The position numbers and the translations under genes were made by a program. Of a DNA stretch of 64,000 nucleotides, positions 1,833-51,516 are shown piece by piece (the stretch's first letter is position 1; each line of letters begins with the position of its first letter). The notes below the pieces were generated by a model. It saw nothing but the letters and a program-made list of their open reading frames with translations. It searched no databases and had not been told where the DNA came from. The stretch spans positions 1,860 through 65,859 of the forward strand of contig CASFHP010000021.1 in NCBI GenBank assembly GCA_949294555.1. Reading direction: 5' to 3'. Source of the DNA: an uncultured Eubacteriales bacterium (lineage in GTDB: Bacteria > Bacillota > Clostridia > TANB77 > CAG-508).

Positions 1833-2591
1833 ATGAAAGTTTTAATCACAGGAGCTTCATCAGGAATAGGAAAAGACATGGTAAGAGTAATGGCTAAAAA
1901 AGTAGATGAATTAGTTTTAGTTGCAAGAGATGTAACCAAATTAGAAGAAGTCAAAAAAGAATTAGAAAATGATGTAAAAATAGAAATTATATCTAAAGAT
2001 TTAAGTGTAGAAGAAAATTGCAAAGAAATCCACAATCAGGTACAAAATGTGGATATCTTAATCAATAATGCAGGATTTGGAGATTGTGGAAACTTTACAA
2101 AGACAAGTTTAGAAAAAGACTTGAATATGATAAAAACCAATATTATCGCTTATCATATATTAACAAAGTTATATTTAACAGATATGAAAGAAAAAAATAG
2201 TGGGAAAATCTTAAATGTAGCATCTATTGCAGGTTTTATGCCAGGACCATTAATGGCAACATATTATGCAACCAAAAATTACGTTGTCAAATTATCAGAA
2301 GCCATCCGAGAAGAATTGAAAAAAGAACATTCTAAAGTACAAATTAGCATATTATGTCCAGGACCAGTTGAAACCAATTTTAATAAAGTGGCAAATGTGG
2401 ATTTTCATTTAAGAGAAGCAAACAGTATGGATGTAGCAAAATATGCAATTAAAAAACTACAAAAAGGTAAGTTTTATATTGTACCAGGAATTGATGTAAA
2501 AATATCAAGATTAGGAGCTAAGCTATTACCTACAAATATCATGAGTAAATTTGCATATATGGCACAAAAAAGAAAATTGGGTGGAGCATAA
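1833..2591 (+). CDS. Short-chain dehydrogenase/reductase (SDR) family oxidoreductase
   Basis: TGASSGIG cofactor motif, NNAG, and the YxxxK catalytic motif (YYATK). RBS gtaagaggt lies upstream. Confidence 0.85.
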   Translation: MKVLITGASSGIGKDMVRVMAKKVDELVLVARDVTKLEEVKKELENDVKIEIISKDLSVEENCKEIHNQVQNVDILINNAGFGDCGNFTKTSLEKDLNMIKTNIIAYHILTKLYLTDMKEKNSGKILNVASIAGFMPGPLMATYYATKNYVVKLSEAIREELKKEHSKVQISILCPGPVETNFNKVANVDFHLREANSMDVAKYAIKKLQKGKFYIVPGIDVKISRLGAKLLPTNIMSKFAYMAQKRKLGGA

Positions 2592-2708
2592 GAGGTTATG
2601 CAAAAAATGCTTTTTGGAACTTTAGAATTAATTATTTTAAAAGTTTTAAAAAGCATAAAATTTATTGACAAAACCAAACATTTATTCTATAATGTAGCTG
2701 GTGATAAT

Positions 2709-3926
2709 ATGGAACGTCAAATATTACATGTAGATGTCAATAATGCTTTTTTAAGTTGGACAGCCTTAGATATGTTAAAAAATGGTAGTGAAATAGATAT
2801 TAGAGAAATACCAGCTGTTATTGGGGGAGATGAATCTAAAAGGTCTGGAATTGTCTTAGCCAAAAGCATGAAAGCAAAAGAATGTGGTGTAAAAACAGCA
2901 GAGACCATTTATCAAGCAAGAATGAAATGTCCAGGCTTAAAAGTGTTTCCTTCCAATTTTAAAATTTATAGAAAGTATTCTAATCAACTATATCAATTAT
3001 TGCTAGAATATACTGATAAAATTGAAAGATTTAGCATTGACGAATGTTTTTTAGACATGACACAATATTTAATGAATGATACCTTATTACAAAAAGGGAA
3101 AGAAATTAATAGAAGAGTAAAAGAAGAATTAGGATTTACAGTAAATGTAGGTGTAGCGCATAATAAATTATTAGCAAAAATGGCTTCTGACTTTACAAAA
3201 CCAGATAGGGTACATACCCTTTTTGAAGAAGAGATACCAGATAAAATGTGGACATTACCAATTTCAGAGCTATTTATGTTAGGAAAACGTACAGTTCCTA
3301 AGTTATATAATATGCAAATAAGAACAATTGGAGATTTAGCAAAATCCAATAAAAAGATATTACAAGATAAATTTGGAAAACATGGTGTGATGATGTGGGA
3401 ATATGCTAATGGAATTGACAATTCAGAGGTAAAATATCTTAAAGAAAAACCAAAAGGTATTGGAAATTCTGTTACATTACCAGAAGATATTACAGAAATT
3501 GAAAAATTGGATGAAATTTTATTGGCTTTAGCAGAACATGTGGCTTATCGATTAAGAAAAGAGAAGATGTTAGCAAAAGTTGTAAATGTACAATTACGTA
3601 ATAATAATTTTGTAGATACGTCACATCAAAAAAAATTAGGAAATGCGACAGATAGTACAAAAGAAATTTTTGAAACAGCTAAAGAACTTTTAGAGCAGAT
3701 GTACAGAAAAGGCACACCAATTAGATTGGTAGGGCTTAGAGTAGATGACTTAACAGATGAAGAAGAAATGCAAATCTCTTTATTTCAACCCCAAAAAGAC
3801 GAAAAACAGGAAAAATTAGATAAAACAATTGACAAACTAAAAGAAAAATATGGATATCACTTAATTACAAGAGCAGGAAATATGCAGACAGAAGATTTTG
3901 TGAAATTTAAAAAAGAAGAAATATAA
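2709..3926 (+). CDS. dinB: DNA polymerase IV (Y-family)
   Basis: MERQILHVDVNNAFLS and SIDECFLDMT are typical Y-family motifs. I prefer the in-frame ATG at 2709 over the ORF-track start at 2598. Confidence 0.9.
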   Translation: MERQILHVDVNNAFLSWTALDMLKNGSEIDIREIPAVIGGDESKRSGIVLAKSMKAKECGVKTAETIYQARMKCPGLKVFPSNFKIYRKYSNQLYQLLLEYTDKIERFSIDECFLDMTQYLMNDTLLQKGKEINRRVKEELGFTVNVGVAHNKLLAKMASDFTKPDRVHTLFEEEIPDKMWTLPISELFMLGKRTVPKLYNMQIRTIGDLAKSNKKILQDKFGKHGVMMWEYANGIDNSEVKYLKEKPKGIGNSVTLPEDITEIEKLDEILLALAEHVAYRLRKEKMLAKVVNVQLRNNNFVDTSHQKKLGNATDSTKEIFETAKELLEQMYRKGTPIRLVGLRVDDLTDEEEMQISLFQPQKDEKQEKLDKTIDKLKEKYGYHLITRAGNMQTEDFVKFKKEEI

Positions 3927-3931
3927 TTATT

Positions 3932-4140
3932 GTTCTGGTATAGGAAAAATCACTTTTCCTATACCAGAACGTCGCTTCGCTCTAACGATTGCACACAAAT
4001 TTTACTTGCGTAAAATTTGGCGCACGAACATTTCTTAGCTGTGCGAAACGAAGTGAGCTACAGATAAGTTATACAACGGAATGACGCGGGCCTTAAAAGG
4101 TTATAAACAGAGAAAATGTTTAAGAAAGCCCGCTATTGTT
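3932..4140 (+). repeat. Composite structured intergenic element, copy C1 (16-bp TATAGGAAA hairpin + ATTGCACA module + GC hairpin + TATTGTTC end)
   Basis: Hairpin gttctggtataggaaa/tttcctataccagaac at 3932-3970. The same module order recurs at 40685-40853. The last ~60 nt recur at 6692-6750. Confidence 0.6.
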
Positions 4141-4217
4141 CTTTAATCAAAATTGTGATATAGTAGCAATAGCAAACAAAGAAAGTCATAAATAATAAAA
4201 ATAGTGGGAGGTAAAAT

Positions 4218-4835
4218 ATGGTAGAAGTATTATGTCATAGTAGTATAAGAATAGAAGAAGGGATTGTTATATATATTGACCCATTCAAAATTAATAAAGA
4301 TTATCATGACGCAGATTATATCTTTTTTACACATTCTCATTATGACCATTTTTCTCCAGAAGATATAGAAAAAGTAAAAAAAGAAAATACAATATTTGTG
4401 GTAACACAAGATTTAAAAGAAAAAGCAGAAACATTATTTAGTAAAGAAAATATATTTGTTGTTAAACCAGGAGAAAACTATCAAATTCAAGGGTTAGAAG
4501 TCGAAACCACCTATGCGTATAATGAAAATAAAGCATTTCATCCTAAGCAAAATCAATGGGTAGGATATATAATTAATGCAAATGATAAAAAATATTATAT
4601 AGCAGGAGATACAGATAATATTGAAGAAATTCAAAATATAGAGTGTGATGTAGCCTTGCTTCCAATTGGTGGAACTTATACAATGGATTATCAAGAAGCA
4701 GCGCAATTGGCAAATCATATAAAAGCAATCACTATAATTCCAACACATTATGGTAGTATTGTTGGAAACAAAGAAGATGCTACAAAATTCAAAAATTTAA
4801 TAATAAATAAAGAAGTAAAAATCTTCCCGTTATAA
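4218..4835 (+). CDS. MBL-fold metallo-hydrolase
   Basis: HSHYDHF (HxHxDH) motif; RBS gggaggt. Confidence 0.8.
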   Translation: MVEVLCHSSIRIEEGIVIYIDPFKINKDYHDADYIFFTHSHYDHFSPEDIEKVKKENTIFVVTQDLKEKAETLFSKENIFVVKPGENYQIQGLEVETTYAYNENKAFHPKQNQWVGYIINANDKKYYIAGDTDNIEEIQNIECDVALLPIGGTYTMDYQEAAQLANHIKAITIIPTHYGSIVGNKEDATKFKNLIINKEVKIFPL

Positions 4836-4947
4836 GAATTGGCATTTTCTATTGTATAAAGCAAATTAAGCATATATGAGAAAATAAAAAAATATATACC
4901 TCTCATAATAAATACAATCGTAGAGGCAAGAAAGGGATGAAACAAAA

Positions 4948-6690
4948 ATGGTTAATGAAACAGAGAAAAAACTATATGAAATACTTAATCAAATTCCCAT
5001 TACAGAGAAAAATAGGGAAAAAATTGAAGATATAAAAATAGCAATACAAGATGGAGACTATAAAGAAGCATTATCAAAATTACAAGAATTAGACGATGAA
5101 ATCGAGGAAAAAAGAAAAGAACAAGCAAGATTAAAAGAAGAGAGCGAAGAGGTGGAAGAAACATTTCCTGTAAAATTGCGTAATACAAAAATAGAATATA
5201 TTTATATGGGACTGCTATTAGAAAATCCGAAATCTATTTCTAGATATTATTTCTTATATAATGAATGTTATTTTCAGGATGATAAAATCTTAAATGTATA
5301 TAAAAGTGTATTATTTACTGAAGGAGGAAGATACACACCAGAAATTGCTAAAGAAGGCTTTAATTTTTCTAGAGATTCAGAAGAAGTTTATAGATTTAAA
5401 AATGAATTGAAAAAAAACGTAAAAGATAAAGACTATGATATGGAGGAAATTTATACAGAATTAAAAAAACTATTCATTTTGAGAAAAGCCTATATGGGTA
5501 ATCCCATTAAAAATATACAAGACAAGATTATTGAAATTATAGATTATACACTATATGATGAAATGTCAGTAGAAGAGGTAGAATCAGCAATTAATCAAGT
5601 AACAGTAACAGATAAATTCAAACAAGCAATCTTAAATAAAAATTTAACAAAATTTCTTGAAGATGGTTCAAGCAATTTAACCAATGGATTGCCATTACCA
5701 TTTCCAATATTAACACAAATATTTAAAGGAATCAGAAAAGGAGAAACCATGGCATATGCAATGCCATCAAACTCCGGAAAGAGTAGACTAGCCATAAATT
5801 TAGCTGCATATACAGCATTTGTAAATAAAAAGAAAGTATTATTAATTTCAAATGAAATGTCTGAAGAAAAAATGAGGTTATGCTTAATTACTACGATTGT
5901 GAACAATCCAGAAATTCAAAAAATTCATGGACAGCAGTTGCATATTACAGAAAATGAGATTTTAGCATTACAATTTAAAGCAGATGACCCTAAAAAAGTG
6001 AAAGTAGATGAACAAGGACATATTTTAAGAGAGAAAGATGAAAAACAAAAAGATTTCATAAAACGATTAGAAAAAGAATCATCAGAATTTAATAAAGTGA
6101 TTGCGGTTACAGATTGGATTAATAAAGAAATTAATAATTCTATTTATTTTATGAATATAACAGACCATACAAATGATGAACTAAGAAAGGTTATTATGAA
6201 CTATTATTATAAAGAAAAGATAGAATATGTATTTTATGATACATTAAAAACAGATACAGCTAATATTGGAAATGCTGAAGAAATAAAGAAGACAGCTACA
6301 ATTTTATCTAATATAGCACAAAACTTTGGGATTTTTATTTGTTCTTCTTTACAATTAGCAGAGAGTTCTACATTACCAATCAATTTGGATGTGAATGATT
6401 TAGCAGTAAGTAGAACTGTAAAAGAAGTTTTAGATACGCTATATTTAATGAAACAGATTAATAGAGACAATTTACAAGATTATGAATATTCATTAAAAGA
6501 AATTGATAATACGTTTTATGATTTAGAAAAATCTGAAGACCCAGATGTTCGATATTATGCATGTGTTGTAGATAAAAACAGAGCAGGTCCAAAACCAAAA
6601 TTGGTATTTCGTCTAAATTTGGCATATAATTATTGGGAAGAACTAGGATATTTGCGATTAAAACAATCAACTACTGAAGAAAATTTGTGA
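4948..6690 (+). CDS. DnaB-family helicase-like protein with an N-terminal coiled-coil extension
   Basis: Walker A PSNSGKS, SSLQLAES, and VVDKNRAGPKPK (DnaB C-terminal-like). The first ~75 aa are a K/E-rich coiled coil. Confidence 0.6.
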   Translation: MVNETEKKLYEILNQIPITEKNREKIEDIKIAIQDGDYKEALSKLQELDDEIEEKRKEQARLKEESEEVEETFPVKLRNTKIEYIYMGLLLENPKSISRYYFLYNECYFQDDKILNVYKSVLFTEGGRYTPEIAKEGFNFSRDSEEVYRFKNELKKNVKDKDYDMEEIYTELKKLFILRKAYMGNPIKNIQDKIIEIIDYTLYDEMSVEEVESAINQVTVTDKFKQAILNKNLTKFLEDGSSNLTNGLPLPFPILTQIFKGIRKGETMAYAMPSNSGKSRLAINLAAYTAFVNKKKVLLISNEMSEEKMRLCLITTIVNNPEIQKIHGQQLHITENEILALQFKADDPKKVKVDEQGHILREKDEKQKDFIKRLEKESSEFNKVIAVTDWINKEINNSIYFMNITDHTNDELRKVIMNYYYKEKIEYVFYDTLKTDTANIGNAEEIKKTATILSNIAQNFGIFICSSLQLAESSTLPINLDVNDLAVSRTVKEVLDTLYLMKQINRDNLQDYEYSLKEIDNTFYDLEKSEDPDVRYYACVVDKNRAGPKPKLVFRLNLAYNYWEELGYLRLKQSTTEENL

Positions 6691-45951: not shown

Positions 45952-48900
45952 TTGGAAAATCTCGGAAAGTTTGTAACACTGGTAAATCAAATAGAAAACG
46001 AAAAAAGTCCGATAATGATATCGGGCTTAACTGGCGTGGGAATGGTAGAATTATTAGCCAGTATCAACGAATATGCCAAAAGGCCAATGTTAATAGTTAC
46101 ATACAATGAGGTTCAAGCAAAAGAAATAGCAGGAAATATAAAAGCATTTATTGATAAAGGCGATATATTCCCCAAAAAAGAAATTGTAACTTATGACTAT
46201 ATTGCAGAAAGTAAAGACTTGCCTTATGAAAGAATAGAAGTATTAAGTAAGATAAAAGAAAAAAGAAACCCAATCATTGTGACGACCATAGAAGCTTTAA
46301 TGCAAAAATTACCACCAAGAGATGTATTATTTAAAAACTTGCTACACTTCAAAGTGGGCGATGTTTATTCATTAGAAGATATCAAGAAAACCCTAGTAAA
46401 TTTAGGGTATGTGAGATGTGACCTAATTGAAGGAAGAGGGCAATTTAGTATTAGAGGTGGCATTTTAGATATTTCTGTTTCAGAAAAAGTTGGTGTTAGA
46501 ATTGAGTTCTGGGGAGATGAAGTAGACTCTATTAGGAATTTTGCAATTGTTAGTCAGAGGTCAATTAACACATTGGAAAAAGTGGAGATTTATCCAGCAC
46601 ATGAATACATATTAGAGCAACCAATAGAGCAAGTATGTAAAAATATCAGAGATGTATTTTTTAATAAAAATCAGCAAGAAATTGTAGAAGAAGATATAGA
46701 GCAAATTGTCGGTGGAAATTATATTAGTAAAATTGATAAATATTTTGATTGCTTTTATACACATACATCTACATTATTAGATTATTTATCAGACAAATAT
46801 ATTATTGCATTAGATGAAGAAAGAAAAATAAAACAAAGAACAGAAAATATCAAGCAAGATAGAAAAAATTTGATTGACGCTTTAGTGGAAAAAGAAAAAA
46901 TAGTGCCTCAAAGCTTAGAAAATACAATTGAATATGATGAAATAGAAAGTATTTTAGAAAATGGAAAACGAAATCTTATCTATTTAGAAAAACAAGATAG
47001 CGTAACCAATAAACAAGCAGAAAAATATGTTTTTGAATACAGAGAGGTGAATTTCTATAAAAGCGAAATTGAAAGTCTATTTCAAGAACTAAAAGAAGCA
47101 TTAAAACACAAAAAAAGTGTATATATTTTAGTTGAGAGCAAAGAAAAGGCAAAAAAGCTAAAAGAAATATTAGAAAAAGAAGAAATTATTTGTAAGATTG
47201 AAGAAAAATTAGACAAGACAATTGTGGTAAAAACAGTTGAAAAAATTGTAACAATTGGAATTGGAAAAGTAACTTCTGGATTTGAAAATTATGAAATTAA
47301 TCAATTGGTTATTTCAGCAGATGAATTAATTAGTGGAGAAAAGAAAAAAAGAAAAGCTGTCCATTCAGCATATGCAGAAGGGGAAAAGGTTGTATTTGCC
47401 GATTTAAAGATAGGGGATTATGTCGTTCATAGAACCTATGGAATTGGTATCTATATTGGTGTGAATACCATTAAAGCAGATGGAACCATTAAGGATTATA
47501 TCAAGATAAAATACCAAAATGACGATATTTTATATGTCCCAACAAATCAAATGGACATGATTAGAAAATATGTTGGTGGAGATACCATTCATCCAAAAAT
47601 CAATCGATTAGGAAGTAAAGAATGGGAAAATACCAAAACCAAAGTAAAGAAAAACTTAAGAGAAGTGGCAAGAGACTTAATCGAATTGTATGCCAAAAGA
47701 GAAAAGTCACAAGGATTTAGTTTTAGTAAAGACACCCCTTGGCAAAATGAATTTGAAGCAAAATTTCCATATCAAGAAACCGACGACCAATTACGTTGTA
47801 TAGAAGAGGTCAAAAAAGATATGGAAAACGATAAACCGATGGACAGATTGTTATGTGGAGATGTTGGATATGGTAAAACAGAAGTCGCCATAAGAGCAGC
47901 ATTTAAGGCGGTCATGGACCATAAACAAGTAGCATATTTAGCACCAACAACCGTTTTAGCAGAACAACAATATCAAGAATTTAAAGAAAGAATGAAAGAT
48001 TACCCAATCAAAGTAGAAATCTTAAACAGATTTAAGACTGCTAAATATCAAAAAGAAGTGATAAAAGGTTTAAAACTAGGAGAAGTGGACATTGTGGTTG
48101 GAACGCATAGAATTCTAAGTAAAGATGTGGAATTCAGAGATTTAGGGTTATTAATCATTGATGAAGAGCATCGATTTGGTGTAAAAGATAAAGAAAAAAT
48201 AAAACAATACAAAACAAATGTAGATGTATTAACCATGACAGCAACACCAATTCCTAGAACTTTACACATGTCTATTGTAGGTGTAAGAGATATGTCTGTT
48301 ATCTATGAACCACCACAAAATAGGAGACCTGTACAGACTTATGTACTAGAATATGATAGAGAAGTAGTAAGAGAAGCCATTACAAAAGAATTGGAAAGAG
48401 ATGGACAAGTATTTTACATTTTTAACAATGTAGAAAATATCCAGCGAAAAGCAGATGAAATAGCAAATCTTGTACCAGAAGCAGAAGTTTCTTATGCACA
48501 TGGGCAAATGTCAGGAAATCAAATTGAAGAAATCATGGATGACTTCATTCAAAAAAAATCAAATGTATTGGTATGTACAACCATTTTGGAATCTGGAATC
48601 GATATCCCAAATGCCAATACGATTATAGTAGAAAATGCAGACAGAATGGGATTAGCACAGCTATATCAAATTCGAGGAAGAGTTGGTAGAAGTGATAGGC
48701 AAGCATATGCGTATATTACCTATAAACGAGACAAATTACTATCAGAAGTTGCAGACAAGCGATTAAAAGCTATAAAAGAATTCACAGAATTTGGTTCAGG
48801 ATTTAAAATTGCAATGCGTGACTTGGAAATCAGAGGAGCAGGAAGTTTGCTAGGAGAAATCCAATCAGGACACTTAGAACAAGTAGGATATGATACGTAT

Positions 48901-49407
48901 TGCAACCTGTTAGATGAAGTTGTAAAAGAAATAAAAGGTATAGAAGTAAAACCAGAAGTCGATATTCAAATAGACCTAAATGTAACCAGCTATATTCCAG
49001 AAGAGTATATCTCAGATGCTAACCAAAAAATTGAAATATATCAAGATATTGCATTATGCAAAAGTGAAGAAGATATCCAAAATGTTATTGATGAAATTAT
49101 TGATAGATTTGGTAACATGCCAGCAGAATTGGAAAACTTAATCGATATTGCACGAATTAAATATTTAGCAAAAGCATTAAATATATCAAAAATTGCAAGC
49201 AAGAAAACAGCCGTTGTCTTCACTTTTGAAGAAAGTCAATTTCCATATGATGTAGCAAAACTTGTAAAAGAATATGGAAATAGTTTAAAATTCTCAGCAG
49301 GTATTAAACCGATGATTACACTAGAGATTGGAACAAATAATGAAATGAAAATTTTAAATGATGTGACAGAATTTTTGAAGACTTTGGGGAAATATAAAAG
49401 TGAATAA
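45952..49407 (+). CDS. mfd: Transcription-repair coupling factor
   Basis: Helicase motifs GDVGYGKTEVA, DEEHRFG, TATPIPRT and QLYQIRGRVGRS. The TTG at 45952 lies only 2 nt after its AGGAGA. The N-terminus may instead start at ATG 45930 and join via a +1 shift at CGG 45963-45965. Confidence 0.95.
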   Translation: MENLGKFVTLVNQIENEKSPIMISGLTGVGMVELLASINEYAKRPMLIVTYNEVQAKEIAGNIKAFIDKGDIFPKKEIVTYDYIAESKDLPYERIEVLSKIKEKRNPIIVTTIEALMQKLPPRDVLFKNLLHFKVGDVYSLEDIKKTLVNLGYVRCDLIEGRGQFSIRGGILDISVSEKVGVRIEFWGDEVDSIRNFAIVSQRSINTLEKVEIYPAHEYILEQPIEQVCKNIRDVFFNKNQQEIVEEDIEQIVGGNYISKIDKYFDCFYTHTSTLLDYLSDKYIIALDEERKIKQRTENIKQDRKNLIDALVEKEKIVPQSLENTIEYDEIESILENGKRNLIYLEKQDSVTNKQAEKYVFEYREVNFYKSEIESLFQELKEALKHKKSVYILVESKEKAKKLKEILEKEEIICKIEEKLDKTIVVKTVEKIVTIGIGKVTSGFENYEINQLVISADELISGEKKKRKAVHSAYAEGEKVVFADLKIGDYVVHRTYGIGIYIGVNTIKADGTIKDYIKIKYQNDDILYVPTNQMDMIRKYVGGDTIHPKINRLGSKEWENTKTKVKKNLREVARDLIELYAKREKSQGFSFSKDTPWQNEFEAKFPYQETDDQLRCIEEVKKDMENDKPMDRLLCGDVGYGKTEVAIRAAFKAVMDHKQVAYLAPTTVLAEQQYQEFKERMKDYPIKVEILNRFKTAKYQKEVIKGLKLGEVDIVVGTHRILSKDVEFRDLGLLIIDEEHRFGVKDKEKIKQYKTNVDVLTMTATPIPRTLHMSIVGVRDMSVIYEPPQNRRPVQTYVLEYDREVVREAITKELERDGQVFYIFNNVENIQRKADEIANLVPEAEVSYAHGQMSGNQIEEIMDDFIQKKSNVLVCTTILESGIDIPNANTIIVENADRMGLAQLYQIRGRVGRSDRQAYAYITYKRDKLLSEVADKRLKAIKEFTEFGSGFKIAMRDLEIRGAGSLLGEIQSGHLEQVGYDTYCNLLDEVVKEIKGIEVKPEVDIQIDLNVTSYIPEEYISDANQKIEIYQDIALCKSEEDIQNVIDEIIDRFGNMPAELENLIDIARIKYLAKALNISKIASKKTAVVFTFEESQFPYDVAKLVKEYGNSLKFSAGIKPMITLEIGTNNEMKILNDVTEFLKTLGKYKSE

Positions 49408-49544
49408 AAATACAAAAATTTTTATAACAAAAAGGCATATCTAAAAATAGGTATGCCTTTTTGTTGATATTAATGACTTACATAGTATAAAACTATGGAC
49501 ACTAATGTAATTATAGTATATGATGAAATTAAGAATATATGCAA

Positions 49545-49619
49545 TAAAAAACGATAGCCTTTTAGCTATCGGATTAATAATGATTACGTTCCTTTCGGAA
49601 CGGACACTAATGTTTTATT
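49545..49619 (-). ncRNA. Candidate ~75-nt small RNA
   Basis: Minus-strand promoter TTGACT (49654-49649), 17-nt spacer, TAAAAT (49631-49626). GAAA-tetraloop hairpin (49587-49602). Intrinsic terminator hairpin (49552-49571) plus a 6-U run. Confidence 0.4.
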
Positions 49620-49902
49620 AAATTTATTTTAACTGTTAATTAGAAAAAAGTCAAGAATTTTTTAAAAACTTATTCATTTTTTAATGGTCGTAATCTATAT
49701 AAGGTTTCAAGTTGGGAATTTATATTGCTCCAATCGTTTTGTGAAATTGTAACTAAATTCCCGAAATATAAAGAAATTATATTGAATAAACAAGAAAAAA
49801 GTTATAAAATACAAGCATATTTATATAGTTTATTTCAAAAGTAGATTATATCAACTATTAAATAAAATATTTTAAAATTTACTTTTAAATCAATATAAAC
49901 TA

Positions 49903-49931
49903 TTGACTTTGCATGTAATAGTATATATAAT
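49903..49931 (+). promoter_or_regulatory. Consensus promoter of the small-toxin transcript
   Basis: TTGACT (49903-49908), 17-nt spacer, TATAAT (49926-49931). Confidence 0.6.
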
Positions 49932-50007
49932 TACATATGAAGTAAGAGAGTAAACAAGGAATAGTGGCTATCATCTCTAATTCCAAAGGATGAGGAGGTG
50001 ATGCTAT

Positions 50008-50121
50008 ATGGTAAATATATTAATTAAATTATTACATATTTTAATTTTTTCTAATATATGTTTTATCATAGTAGTTATTGCCTTAATAATTGTGATAATA
50101 TTATTAATAAGCGATAAATAA
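50008..50121 (+). CDS. 37-aa hydrophobic peptide, type I toxin-like
   Basis: GAGGAGG RBS 8 nt upstream of the ATG. The peptide is MVNILIKLLHILIFSNICFIIVVIALIIVIILLISDK (one TM helix with a short polar tail). It is below the ORF-track size cut-off. Confidence 0.55.
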   Translation: MVNILIKLLHILIFSNICFIIVVIALIIVIILLISDK

Positions 50122-50215
50122 AAAAGCCACACCCTTGATTCCGCCATCGGGGTGTGGTAATAACACCAATAAGATGAGATGGTAGCCACTATTTGAAAGT
50201 GGTCTCCTTACTTCT
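50120..50215 (-). ncRNA. Candidate antisense antitoxin RNA, convergent with and overlapping the toxin 3' UTR
   Basis: Minus-strand extended -10 TGATATAAT (50230-50222). A GC-rich hairpin (50127-50157) is followed by a U-run only on the minus strand, ending at the toxin stop codon. Confidence 0.5.
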
Positions 50216-50295
50216 ATTTATATTATATCATAAAATTGTATAAAGTAAATAGAATTTGAAAAAATAAATTATATAAATAAAATCTGGAGGCCGTT

Positions 50296-51108
50296 ATGCA
50301 AGTAATATCAAGTAAAGATAATGAATTTATTAAACATGTAAAAAAATTAAAAGACAAAAAATATAGAGACTTGAACAATGAATATATCATTGAAGGCATT
50401 AAAATTATAGAAGAAGCCATCAATGAAAAAGCGAATATCAAACAAGTCGTTATTTGTGATGATTGCGAAAAAACATCCAATATTCCTAAAGACTTAATGT
50501 ATGAAATTGCAAAACAAGAATGTGTATATGTAACAAGCAAATTATTTGAAAGTTTAACAGATGTTGCAAATCCACAAGGAATATTGGCAATTGTGGAGAA
50601 AAATACAGTAAAGTCGCAAACAGCAGGCAATGAGGAACAAGAACTCGATTATACTCAAGATATTATAGTAGCCTTAGATGATATTCAAGACCCAGGAAAC
50701 CTAGGCACTATTTTAAGAACAGTAGATAGTATAGGGCTTAGTCAAATATTGGTATCAAAAGGAACAGCAGATAGCTATAATCCAAAGGTTGTAAGGTCTA
50801 CAATGGGAGCCATATTTAGAGTTAAAATTATCGAATGTGCAGACTTAGAAAAAACACTAAAAGAAATCAAAAAACATAAATTTGAAATTGTTGTAACGTC
50901 ATTACAAACAAAAAATAGTATTTATGACATTCATTACAAGAAAAAAGTAATTGTCATCGGAAATGAAGCAAATGGGGTAGAAGAAAAAATACAAAAACTA
51001 GCAGACAAAAAAGTAAAAATACCAATGCTTGGAAAAACAGAAAGCTTAAACGCTTCTGTTGCAACAGGTATCATATTATATGAATATGTGAGACAAAAAA
51101 TTGAATAA
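50296..51108 (+). CDS. TrmH/SpoU-family RNA 2'-O-methyltransferase
   Basis: SpoU motifs DDIQDPGNLGTILRT, VIGNEANGV and ESLNASVA. Confidence 0.9.
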   Translation: MQVISSKDNEFIKHVKKLKDKKYRDLNNEYIIEGIKIIEEAINEKANIKQVVICDDCEKTSNIPKDLMYEIAKQECVYVTSKLFESLTDVANPQGILAIVEKNTVKSQTAGNEEQELDYTQDIIVALDDIQDPGNLGTILRTVDSIGLSQILVSKGTADSYNPKVVRSTMGAIFRVKIIECADLEKTLKEIKKHKFEIVVTSLQTKNSIYDIHYKKKVIVIGNEANGVEEKIQKLADKKVKIPMLGKTESLNASVATGIILYEYVRQKIE

Positions 51109-51516
51109 AAAACAAAAATTTTCTTAGAGTTCAATACTCTAAGAAAAAAATAATATTTTTAACAAACCAAAAAAATCTGAAACATTAAATATACTAAGTG
51201 TTTCAGGTTTTTTGTGTTTTCTTAGAGTATTGAAATCCAAGTAAAACAAGAAATAAAATACGACAACATGTTAACTTAACTCAAAATAATAGATAAAATA
51301 AAAATGTAAAAAAATGATTTTAATTGAGAATAAGAATATTTAAAATACATATTATTGGAATAAAAAGTAAAAAAATGTGAATACGATTTATGAAAGTTAA
51401 AAGAAAACTAGAAGTTAAAGAATAGATAAAAAACTCTAAGAAAAGAAGAAAATGTACACAAATGAAACATTACATAAATTAAGCATAAGAAAACAAAAGA
51501 AGGGAGATTTTAAGGA

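Follow-up and report, generated by a model that had tools for sequence, protein, structure and literature searches.

Does the gap between mfd and its downstream neighbour in an uncultured gut Clostridia bacterium hold a toxin–antitoxin (TA) pair of type I? Such systems are hard to find by homology and, to our knowledge, are almost unknown in uncultured gut Clostridia. The gap lies in a 64,000-nucleotide (nt) stretch of an Eubacteriales assembly (contig CASFHP010000021.1, positions 1,860 to 65,859 of the forward strand; hereafter the window, G+C content 28.6%), between Mfd (45952-49407) and an rRNA methylase gene of the SpoU/TrmH family (50296-51108; hereafter SpoU). A cassette of ~330 bases in this gap carries a predicted gene for a 37-amino acid (aa) peptide and, convergent to it, a predicted gene for an antisense small RNA (sRNA). 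The signals found there partly support a convergent peptide-gene/antisense-RNA module of type I TA design, and the reading we prefer, at a probability of roughly 55%, is that the locus is a chromosomal, strain-variable and lineage-restricted type I TA-like cassette. For comparison, we used SpoU homologues and their contigs (given below as L numbers), with some of the relatives represented by ~1.5-Mb single-contig genomes.

The plus-strand parts that an earlier note on this DNA had proposed, namely a consensus promoter, a structured leader, a GAGGAGG ribosome-binding site and a 37-aa peptide with a single transmembrane (TM) segment, were all recovered. The promoter of the peptide mRNA, TTGACT-17-TATAAT at 49903-49931, has 11 of 12 consensus matches and a predicted start at G49939, and it is kept in L099/L152, L136 and L098. 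The Shine-Dalgarno (SD) sequence GAGGAGG (49992-49998) lies 9 nt 5´ of the ATG at 50008, from which the open reading frame (ORF) for the putative membrane toxin, MVNILIKLLHILIFSNICFIIVVIALIIVIILLISDK, extends to 50121 (stop TAA at 50119-50121). At 2.45, the grand average of hydropathy (GRAVY) of the peptide is the highest among the 161 ATG ORFs of 30-60 codons in the window (mean 0.37, sd 0.74), and its ORF is among only four of these 161 to have an SD. AlphaFold2 modelled a single helix spanning residues 2-36 with a predicted local distance difference test score (pLDDT) of 96.6. In its size (<60 aa), hydrophobicity and predicted helix, the peptide resembles type I toxins in general. A full HMMER pass through 1.84 billion protein representatives returned a sole homologue, P0121 (92% identity), which is the orthologue in L099, L148 and L152, and a look-up of the exact peptide gave no record.

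On the minus strand, the extended -10 element of the earlier note was likewise present (TGATATAAT, 50230-50222), as part of a predicted antisense RNA promoter, TTTACT-16-TATAAT with an upstream TG (50249-50222, 10 of 12 matches), in which a single spacer position varies over five haplotypes. Both promoters score near the top of the 16 promoter-like sites in 49300-50700, a region where three other sites also have 10 of 12 matches and where the number of such sites is not above that in shuffled sequence (12.4 expected). From the positions of promoter and terminator, we predict an antisense sRNA (the putative antitoxin) of ~94 nt at 50121-50214, minus strand. Its predicted intrinsic terminator is a GC-rich hairpin, CCACACCC/GGGTGTGG (50126-50158, with the stem-loop at 50127-50157), followed on the minus strand by a U-run at 50125-50120. 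The corresponding run of six A residues on the plus strand (50120-50125) overlaps the TAA stop codon and provides a U-run for the minus-strand RNA only, which agrees with the description of a strand-specific hairpin abutting the stop. A generic terminator scan did not call this hairpin because its loop is 15 nt. In its predicted fold (-28.1 kcal/mol, z-score -2.5), the sRNA has 8 free nt at its 5´ end and a 9-bp 5´ hairpin, then a variable linker and last the terminator. Over 94 nt it is perfectly complementary to the mRNA 3´ of the ORF, the overlap starting at the stop codon.

The 5´ domain of the sRNA is almost invariant over the five haplotypes and, apart from one stem change, all variable positions fall in loops or in the linker. 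The stem change, found in L135 and L136, is a C→U substitution on the minus-strand RNA that retains a G·U pair, while a plus-strand RNA would acquire a C·A mismatch. This pattern suggests that selection has acted on the minus-strand transcript. Potential pairing of the sRNA with the SD region (nine Watson-Crick pairs and one G·U in 11 positions) is found in the window haplotype only and is lost in L099, L135 and L136. We also considered a 61-aa ORF on the minus strand (50189-50004) and rejected it, as its expression would need read-through of the terminator, its SD spacing is poor and it meets a stop after seven codons in L099. An Rfam scan at gathering thresholds returned two tRNAs only, and at E ≤ 10 the matches on either strand were sub-threshold and unrelated, with no RatA or other antitoxin RNA family among them.

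The two predicted transcripts are related to each other. On the plus strand GAAGTAAG begins at 49939 and on the minus strand at 50214, in each case 7 nt past the -10 hexamer, just as the earlier note had it, and the cassette contains inverted copies of GAAGTAAG-N14-AATAGTGGCTAYCATCTC. The further claim that the first ~40 nt of the transcripts are near-duplicates holds for two blocks (8 of 8 and 17 of 18 positions), but the 14-nt spacer between them is dissimilar, so that the likeness is not continuous. Leader block 1, GAAGUAAG (49939-49946, plus strand), is predicted to be a single-stranded 5´ toehold; it is the exact sequence with which the predicted antisense RNA begins, and it can pair with 50207-50214. 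Leader block 2, AAUAGUGGCUAUCAUCUC (49960-49977, plus strand), includes the anti-SD and is the inverted-repeat partner of 50176-50193. This 18-nt repeat is 94% complementary, for which the chance expectation in the window is 0.05. The putative antitoxin looks like a duplicated copy of the toxin leader.

Folded in isolation, the leader (49939-50012) is predicted to form a 14-bp hairpin that buries the SD (-19.3 kcal/mol, z-score -3.15), with the anti-SD AUCAUCUCU paired to AGGAGGUGAU in a local SD-sequestering element at 49964-50007 (plus strand). The same fold was obtained for both other leader haplotypes, L098 and L099, and so for three in all. For the full-length plus-strand RNA (49939-50220), the minimum-free-energy structure closes the 5´ region onto the 3´ region (-90.7 kcal/mol, z-score -7.95), as leader blocks 1 and 2 pair with 50207-50214 and 50176-50193; this is a gain of 11 kcal/mol over the structure with the local SD hairpin enforced (-79.5 kcal/mol). 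In L152, too, closure had the lowest predicted free energy (-87.5 kcal/mol). The segment of the 3´ untranslated region (UTR) involved, 50176-50214 on the plus strand, is complementary both to the mRNA’s own leader (as blocks 2´ and 1´) and to the 5´ domain of the sRNA, and the leader–3´ UTR duplex amounts to -47 kcal/mol.

When the 3´ UTR was absent or the sRNA target region was blocked in the folding, the SD hairpin re-formed and the probability of an unpaired SD fell to ~0. In the closed state, the SD was mostly paired with other partners, the unpaired probability being 0.02-0.45 in the window and 0.02-0.24 in L152. Because the SD is mostly paired in both states, folding favours neither regulatory direction for the long-distance helix. 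The idea that this helix is an ON state in which the 3´ UTR opens the SD was not supported, given that the SD is mostly taken up by alternative partners in both haplotypes. The competition between leader and antisense RNA for the 3´ UTR that the earlier note proposed stands as base-pairing arithmetic. A covariation test of the sRNA and of the long-distance helix had no covariation signal to draw on, since stems and arms are invariant.

Comparison of the window with L099 revealed a mosaic of conservation. The SpoU proteins of the two are 94% identical (87% at the DNA level), and 30% of the codons for identical residues differ. Identity is 71-72% in the upstream spacer, 86% in the promoter, 96% in the leader, 100% in the 5´ half of the ORF (no changes in the first 66 nt), 88-92% in the 3´ half of the ORF, 72% with indels in the linker from the hairpin to the 5´ hairpin of the sRNA, and 96% in the sRNA 5´ domain with its promoter. 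Terminator, leader, 5´ half of the ORF and sRNA 5´ domain plus promoter all fall within 92–100%, and the reading frame is open and indel-free between the two haplotypes. Over a stretch of 450 nt, neutral-looking segments alternate with near-invariant ones, which recent transfer of the whole cassette cannot explain; constraint acts on specific elements of it.

The interval between mfd and SpoU (window 49408-50295; L098 and L122-L156) is a recombination hot spot in this group of uncultured Clostridia. Depending on the relative, it contains a DUF362 Fe-S protein, a 565-aa ORF, an RVT_1 reverse transcriptase, an AAA_14/DUF4143 ATPase, PemK, a truncated KilA-N, the cassette described here, or nothing. 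The full cassette is present in L131, L132 and L133 (haplotype a, 98% identical to the window) and, with an intact ORF, in the sister-species loci L099, L148 and L152 (haplotype b, 87-91% identical). L136 (haplotype c) has kept the promoter and the leader up to AATAGT as well as an intact sRNA module, and a deletion of ~100 nt has taken the anti-SD, the SD, the ATG and ~20 codons. In L135 (haplotype d), nothing is left of the toxin promoter, leader and ORF, and a DUF362 gene ending in AAATAA leads directly into the hairpin, the sRNA and the sRNA promoter. L098 (haplotype e) lacks the hairpin and the sRNA, and here a KilA-N ORF has been joined to the promoter, leader, SD, ATG and four codons of the cassette (84% identity). 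Finally, L149-151 and L153-155 carry empty alleles (haplotype f) with a SpoU protein identical to that of the filled L152. As L149 and L152 stem from the same sample, presence and absence of the cassette are polymorphic within one species and one sample. The filled allele substitutes for ~65 nt of the empty site and is not a clean insertion.

In these haplotypes, the toxin gene has been destroyed in three independent events (L136, L135 and L098), two of which retain the sRNA and one of which has lost both, and in none of the haplotypes is an intact ORF found without the sRNA. This asymmetry is what a TA pair predicts; with so few haplotypes, we take it as an indirect hint of toxicity and neutralisation.

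The L098 fusion (1882-2658, minus strand, in a mouse-gut metagenome-assembled genome, MAG) raised the question of whether the 37-aa ORF could itself be the stump of a KilA-N gene. The fusion is in frame and joined at an ATATAT microhomology, and its KilA-N part lacks 38 N-terminal residues and is 94.5% identical at the nucleotide level to a KilA-N/HTH_36/Mob_Pre gene of a mobilizable element. We rejected the stump hypothesis, as the KilA-N of L098 is itself an N-truncated fragment of such an element joined to the leader; being a truncated captured fragment, it leaves the leader with the short ORF as the older state. The KilA-N/HTH_36/Mob_Pre element (L143-L147) occurs widely, many contigs encoding ≥97%-identical proteins. 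The empty allele of L149 was observed to have its own hairpin (1925-1990, ACACACC...GGTGTGT), preceded by TTATTAAAGAGCGAAAAA, and this spacer sequence is similar to the last six codons of the 37-aa ORF (TTATTAATAAGCGATAAA; window 50100-50160). A possible source of the 3´ end of the ORF and of the terminator is the ancestral DUF362–SpoU spacer; alternatively, the empty allele may have arisen by deletion.

How does the locus relate to known type I systems? By its sequence signals, which include a small TM peptide, an antisense RNA gene and SD sequestration, it has generic features of such systems, and it would work like the 3´-overlap pairs bsrG/SR4, txpA/RatA and sprG/SprF. We do not file it in any of these families because homology was tested and not found. 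The earlier placement in the txpA/ratA and bsrG/SR4 class accordingly holds for the convergent 3´-overlap layout and fails for sequence, Rfam and Pfam similarity. Like bsrG/SR4 of the Bacillus subtilis SPβ prophage, the locus combines a hydrophobic peptide of similar length (~38 aa in BsrG) with a convergent cis-antisense RNA over the 3´ end of the toxin mRNA. Binding of SR4 at the bsrG 3´ end leads to RNase III decay and, at a distance, extends an SD-sequestering helix (PMC3834814, PMC8309996); here, folding with the 3´ region blocked predicts that SD sequestration is fully restored. The differences are that there is no peptide or RNA sequence similarity, that the overlap lies 3´ of the stop codon, that the toxin leader is copied in the 5´ domain of the sRNA, that the C-terminus is SDK instead of a Lys-rich tail, and that the locus is outside a prophage. 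With txpA/RatA and sprG/SprF, it shares the convergent layout, an antitoxin that is antisense to the toxin mRNA in its 3´ region and an expected duplex-dependent decay, but no Rfam match to RatA-type RNAs was seen (E ≤ 10) and the peptide is unrelated to, and shorter than, TxpA.

A long-distance 5´–3´ interaction closes the full-length aapA1 mRNA, which is poorly translatable (PMC5416894). As in aapA1/IsoA1 of Helicobacter pylori and in hok/sok, a 5´–3´ helix is the predicted minimum-free-energy structure here, in two haplotypes. In those systems, however, the mRNA has to be activated by 3´ trimming and the antitoxin targets the 5´ UTR/ribosome-binding site region of the active form, whereas the antisense RNA at this locus covers the 3´ arm and thus mimics the 5´ arm. 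The par family of Gram-positive bacteria (Fst, RNA I/RNA II) similarly has a ~33-aa toxin mRNA and a short RNA converging on a shared hairpin terminator, with repeats near both 5´ ends, and the hairpin in haplotypes L135 and L136 is bidirectional. The par repeats are direct and make the RNA 5´ ends complementary, while the repeats here are inverted and make the RNAs alike, and no Fst-like motif is present. Of the Clostridia systems, CD2517.1-RCd8, CD0956.2-RCd10 and others of Clostridioides difficile are also convergent overlapping pairs. The C. difficile type I toxins have no homologues outside their lineage and carry an N-terminal TM segment (PMC6563280), both of which recall the peptide described here. 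The well-characterised ones are longer at 50-53 aa (34-59 aa across modules) and end in a Lys-rich charged C-terminus (PMC6563280), and the modules, which show no sequence similarity to our locus, are mostly found in prophages or beside CRISPR arrays.

Drawing on these parallels, we propose that the strong promoter at 49903-49931 would drive an mRNA for a 37-residue single-helix membrane peptide, the toxin, and that the anti-SD of the 5´ leader would lock the SD of this mRNA from the start. The convergent extended -10 promoter would yield the ~94-nt sRNA, ending at the minus-strand-specific terminator adjoining the ORF stop. Present in excess, the sRNA would pair with the 3´ region of the toxin mRNA and expose the duplex to RNase III-type decay, as for bsrG/SR4 and txpA/RatA. 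Because its 5´ domain is a leader copy, the sRNA would also displace the leader from the 3´ UTR, allowing the leader to re-form the SD-sequestering hairpin. Between strains, the cassette is gained, lost or decapitated at the hot spot between the mfd terminator and SpoU.

A bolder version of this mechanism, which we regard as doubtful, is a three-way RNA competition in which the antitoxin is a paralogue or mimic of the leader (both starting with GAAGUAAG and sharing a 17-nt core) and acts as a decoy that resets an mRNA switch. The 3´ UTR would capture the leader anti-SD through the long-distance helix, and the sRNA, using the same 8-nt toehold, would take the same 3´ UTR site and so hand the anti-SD back to the SD. 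The antitoxin would then work mainly as a competitive decoy and not by occluding the ribosome-binding site. As no plus-strand terminator precedes SpoU, the switch would also couple the expression of a housekeeping rRNA/tRNA 2´-O-methylase to the state of the TA pair.

A number of results weigh against the TA assignment. The terminator scan found no plus-strand terminator between the ORF and SpoU, so what we call the 3´ UTR may be the intercistronic part of a peptide–SpoU transcript. The C-terminus of the peptide (...LLISDK) has D36 and K37 as its only charged residues and is more weakly charged than those of Fst, BsrG and the C. difficile toxins; a charged C-terminal cluster is usual in type I toxins (PMC6563280, PMC8309996). 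No family in Pfam, NCBIfam, PHROGs or PADLOC matches the peptide, leaving it without a wider family, and the search for paralogues that the earlier note had suggested found none in the window or in any fetched locus. The sRNA module occurs without the toxin behind the DUF362 gene of L135, where it may have its own role, and in L098 the promoter and leader drive a different ORF. There are only two ORF haplotypes, differing in four codons (V23S, V29T, I34M and one synonymous change, for a ratio of 3 nonsynonymous to 1), which show no sign of purifying selection at the peptide level. Most of the changes lie in a predicted mRNA loop; given this location and the 3:1 ratio, the conservation may be at the RNA level only.

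The rival that fares best, though we consider it unlikely, holds that the peptide is a benign regulated small membrane protein, such as a modulator of a transporter or sensor, whose level is tuned by the antisense RNA and the SD hairpin. It calls for the same architecture as the TA reading, fits the weakly charged C-terminus and would equally lead one to expect loss haplotypes, as the gene would be dispensable. A strong anti-SD hairpin and a constitutive-looking extended -10 antisense promoter are, on the other hand, typical for harmful products, the hot spot also holds PemK, ParE and remnants of mobile elements, and none of the haplotypes has the ORF without its sRNA.

Next in rank, and also unlikely, is an RNA-only module or decaying recombination scar whose ORF is not functionally translated. 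The conserved parts would then be the sRNA gene (50214-50121) and a leader/promoter module of inverted-duplication origin, with the 37-codon frame an incidental T-rich sequence kept by RNA structure. Here the nucleotide-level conservation of the ORF becomes relevant: none of its first 66 nt changed while ~30% of synonymous codons in SpoU did, and its substitutions cluster in the predicted loop at the 3:1 ratio given above. The resemblance of its last ~6 codons to the empty-site intergenic TTATTAAAGAGCGAAAAA, the lone sRNA module of L135 and the L098 leader joined to a different ORF are in line with this explanation as well. Yet a consensus SD at optimal spacing and a dedicated anti-SD hairpin make sense only with a translated ORF, the frame stayed open and indel-free where spacers show ~28% substitutions plus indels, and the hydrophobicity of the peptide is an outlier for this genome.

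The position of the cassette suggests a third possibility, that it is a cis-regulator of the downstream methylase gene, with read-through into SpoU controlled by leader-peptide attenuation or antisense interference. The cassette lies between a promoter-like region (49764-49819), which is conserved 5´ of it in all relatives including those without the insert, and the ribosome-binding site of SpoU, and the peptide mRNA may continue into SpoU. This conserved promoter, the missing plus-strand terminator and the stop codon of the ORF only 5 nt from the hairpin are what such regulation would lead us to expect. We nevertheless judge it quite improbable: most close relatives with an identical or near-identical SpoU have no cassette, indicating that SpoU does not need it, the hairpin has no plus-strand U-run in the window, and its substitution pattern favours the minus-strand RNA. 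Least probable is that the cassette belongs to the miniature inverted-repeat mobile elements (MITE- or Correia-like) and carries promoters by chance. Its inverted terminal-like blocks, its presence/absence polymorphism and the AT-rich direct similarity of its flanks are offset by the lack of further copies in the 64-kb window and of a clean insertion, by its occurrence on just one contig of each related MAG among the genome-collection matches listed, and by the absence of matches in viral, metagenome (JGI) or plasmid collections.

These surveys used short cassette sequences as probes. The scan of the genome collection with the 15-mer ATAGTGGCTAYCATC returned at least 120 stretches, nearly all of them chance matches, and BLAST of these loci picked out L098 and L099 as true relatives. 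In the metagenomes, AGTAAG-N12-16-ATAGTGGCTAYCATC matched once, by chance, in a GC-rich coding region (L121), while the scans of viral contigs and plasmids gave no cassette matches and the phage scan gave just AT-rich 46-nt chance matches in Enterococcus phages.

Several other features were observed in and around the hot spot. A GC hairpin at 49430-49466 (AAAAAGGCATATC...GGTATGCCTTTTT), directly past the mfd stop, has an A-run on its 5´ side and a T-run on its 3´ side and looks like a bidirectional intrinsic terminator; it also gave a weak sub-threshold Rfam match to the Enterococcus sRNA A9. Further along, 49545-49654 (minus strand) may be a second sRNA gene of ~70 nt, with TTGACT-17-TAAAAT at 49654-49626 (10 of 12 matches), a small hairpin at 49588-49605 and, at 49571-49552 and followed by a T-run, the sole terminator called by the scan; this candidate is present only in the window-type haplotypes L131-L133. 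The segment 49664-49762 is 99% identical to the 3´ end of a gene for a 161-aa PemK/MazF-like toxin in L135, the remainder of which (L135 100-564) is deleted in the window, so that the remnant of a type II toxin adjoins the type I-like cassette. In L128, just the last ~40 nt of DUF362 are left, and in L098 mfd is split into ORFs of 710 and 366 aa (2843-6299, minus strand) by a frameshift or pseudogene formation or by an assembly error. The region 3´ of SpoU (51139-53881) is variable too: the window and L131 have DUF285/LRR and cohesin-domain proteins, most relatives instead have a second SpoU-like gene of 165 aa together with an S1-domain protein, a ParE toxin is found in L132 and an HTH gene in L138-141. 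Elsewhere in the window, a 45-aa ORF with a GGAGG SD (58491-58628, plus strand) is rubredoxin-like by its CxxC motif pairs and is probably a real small gene.

Taken as a type I TA-like cassette, the locus does not embody a new principle, and the case for it is built on sequence inference. If the assignment is correct, it adds an orphan toxin family and provides a compact natural case of an antitoxin that is a duplicate of the toxin leader. The design would unite the 5´–3´ mRNA closure of aapA1 and hok with the 3´-end antisense RNA and remote SD sequestration of the bsrG/SR4 kind. The series of haplotypes, which runs from intact through decapitated, antitoxin-only and replaced to empty, would then amount to a genetic dissection already made in nature, from which the dispensable parts can be predicted.

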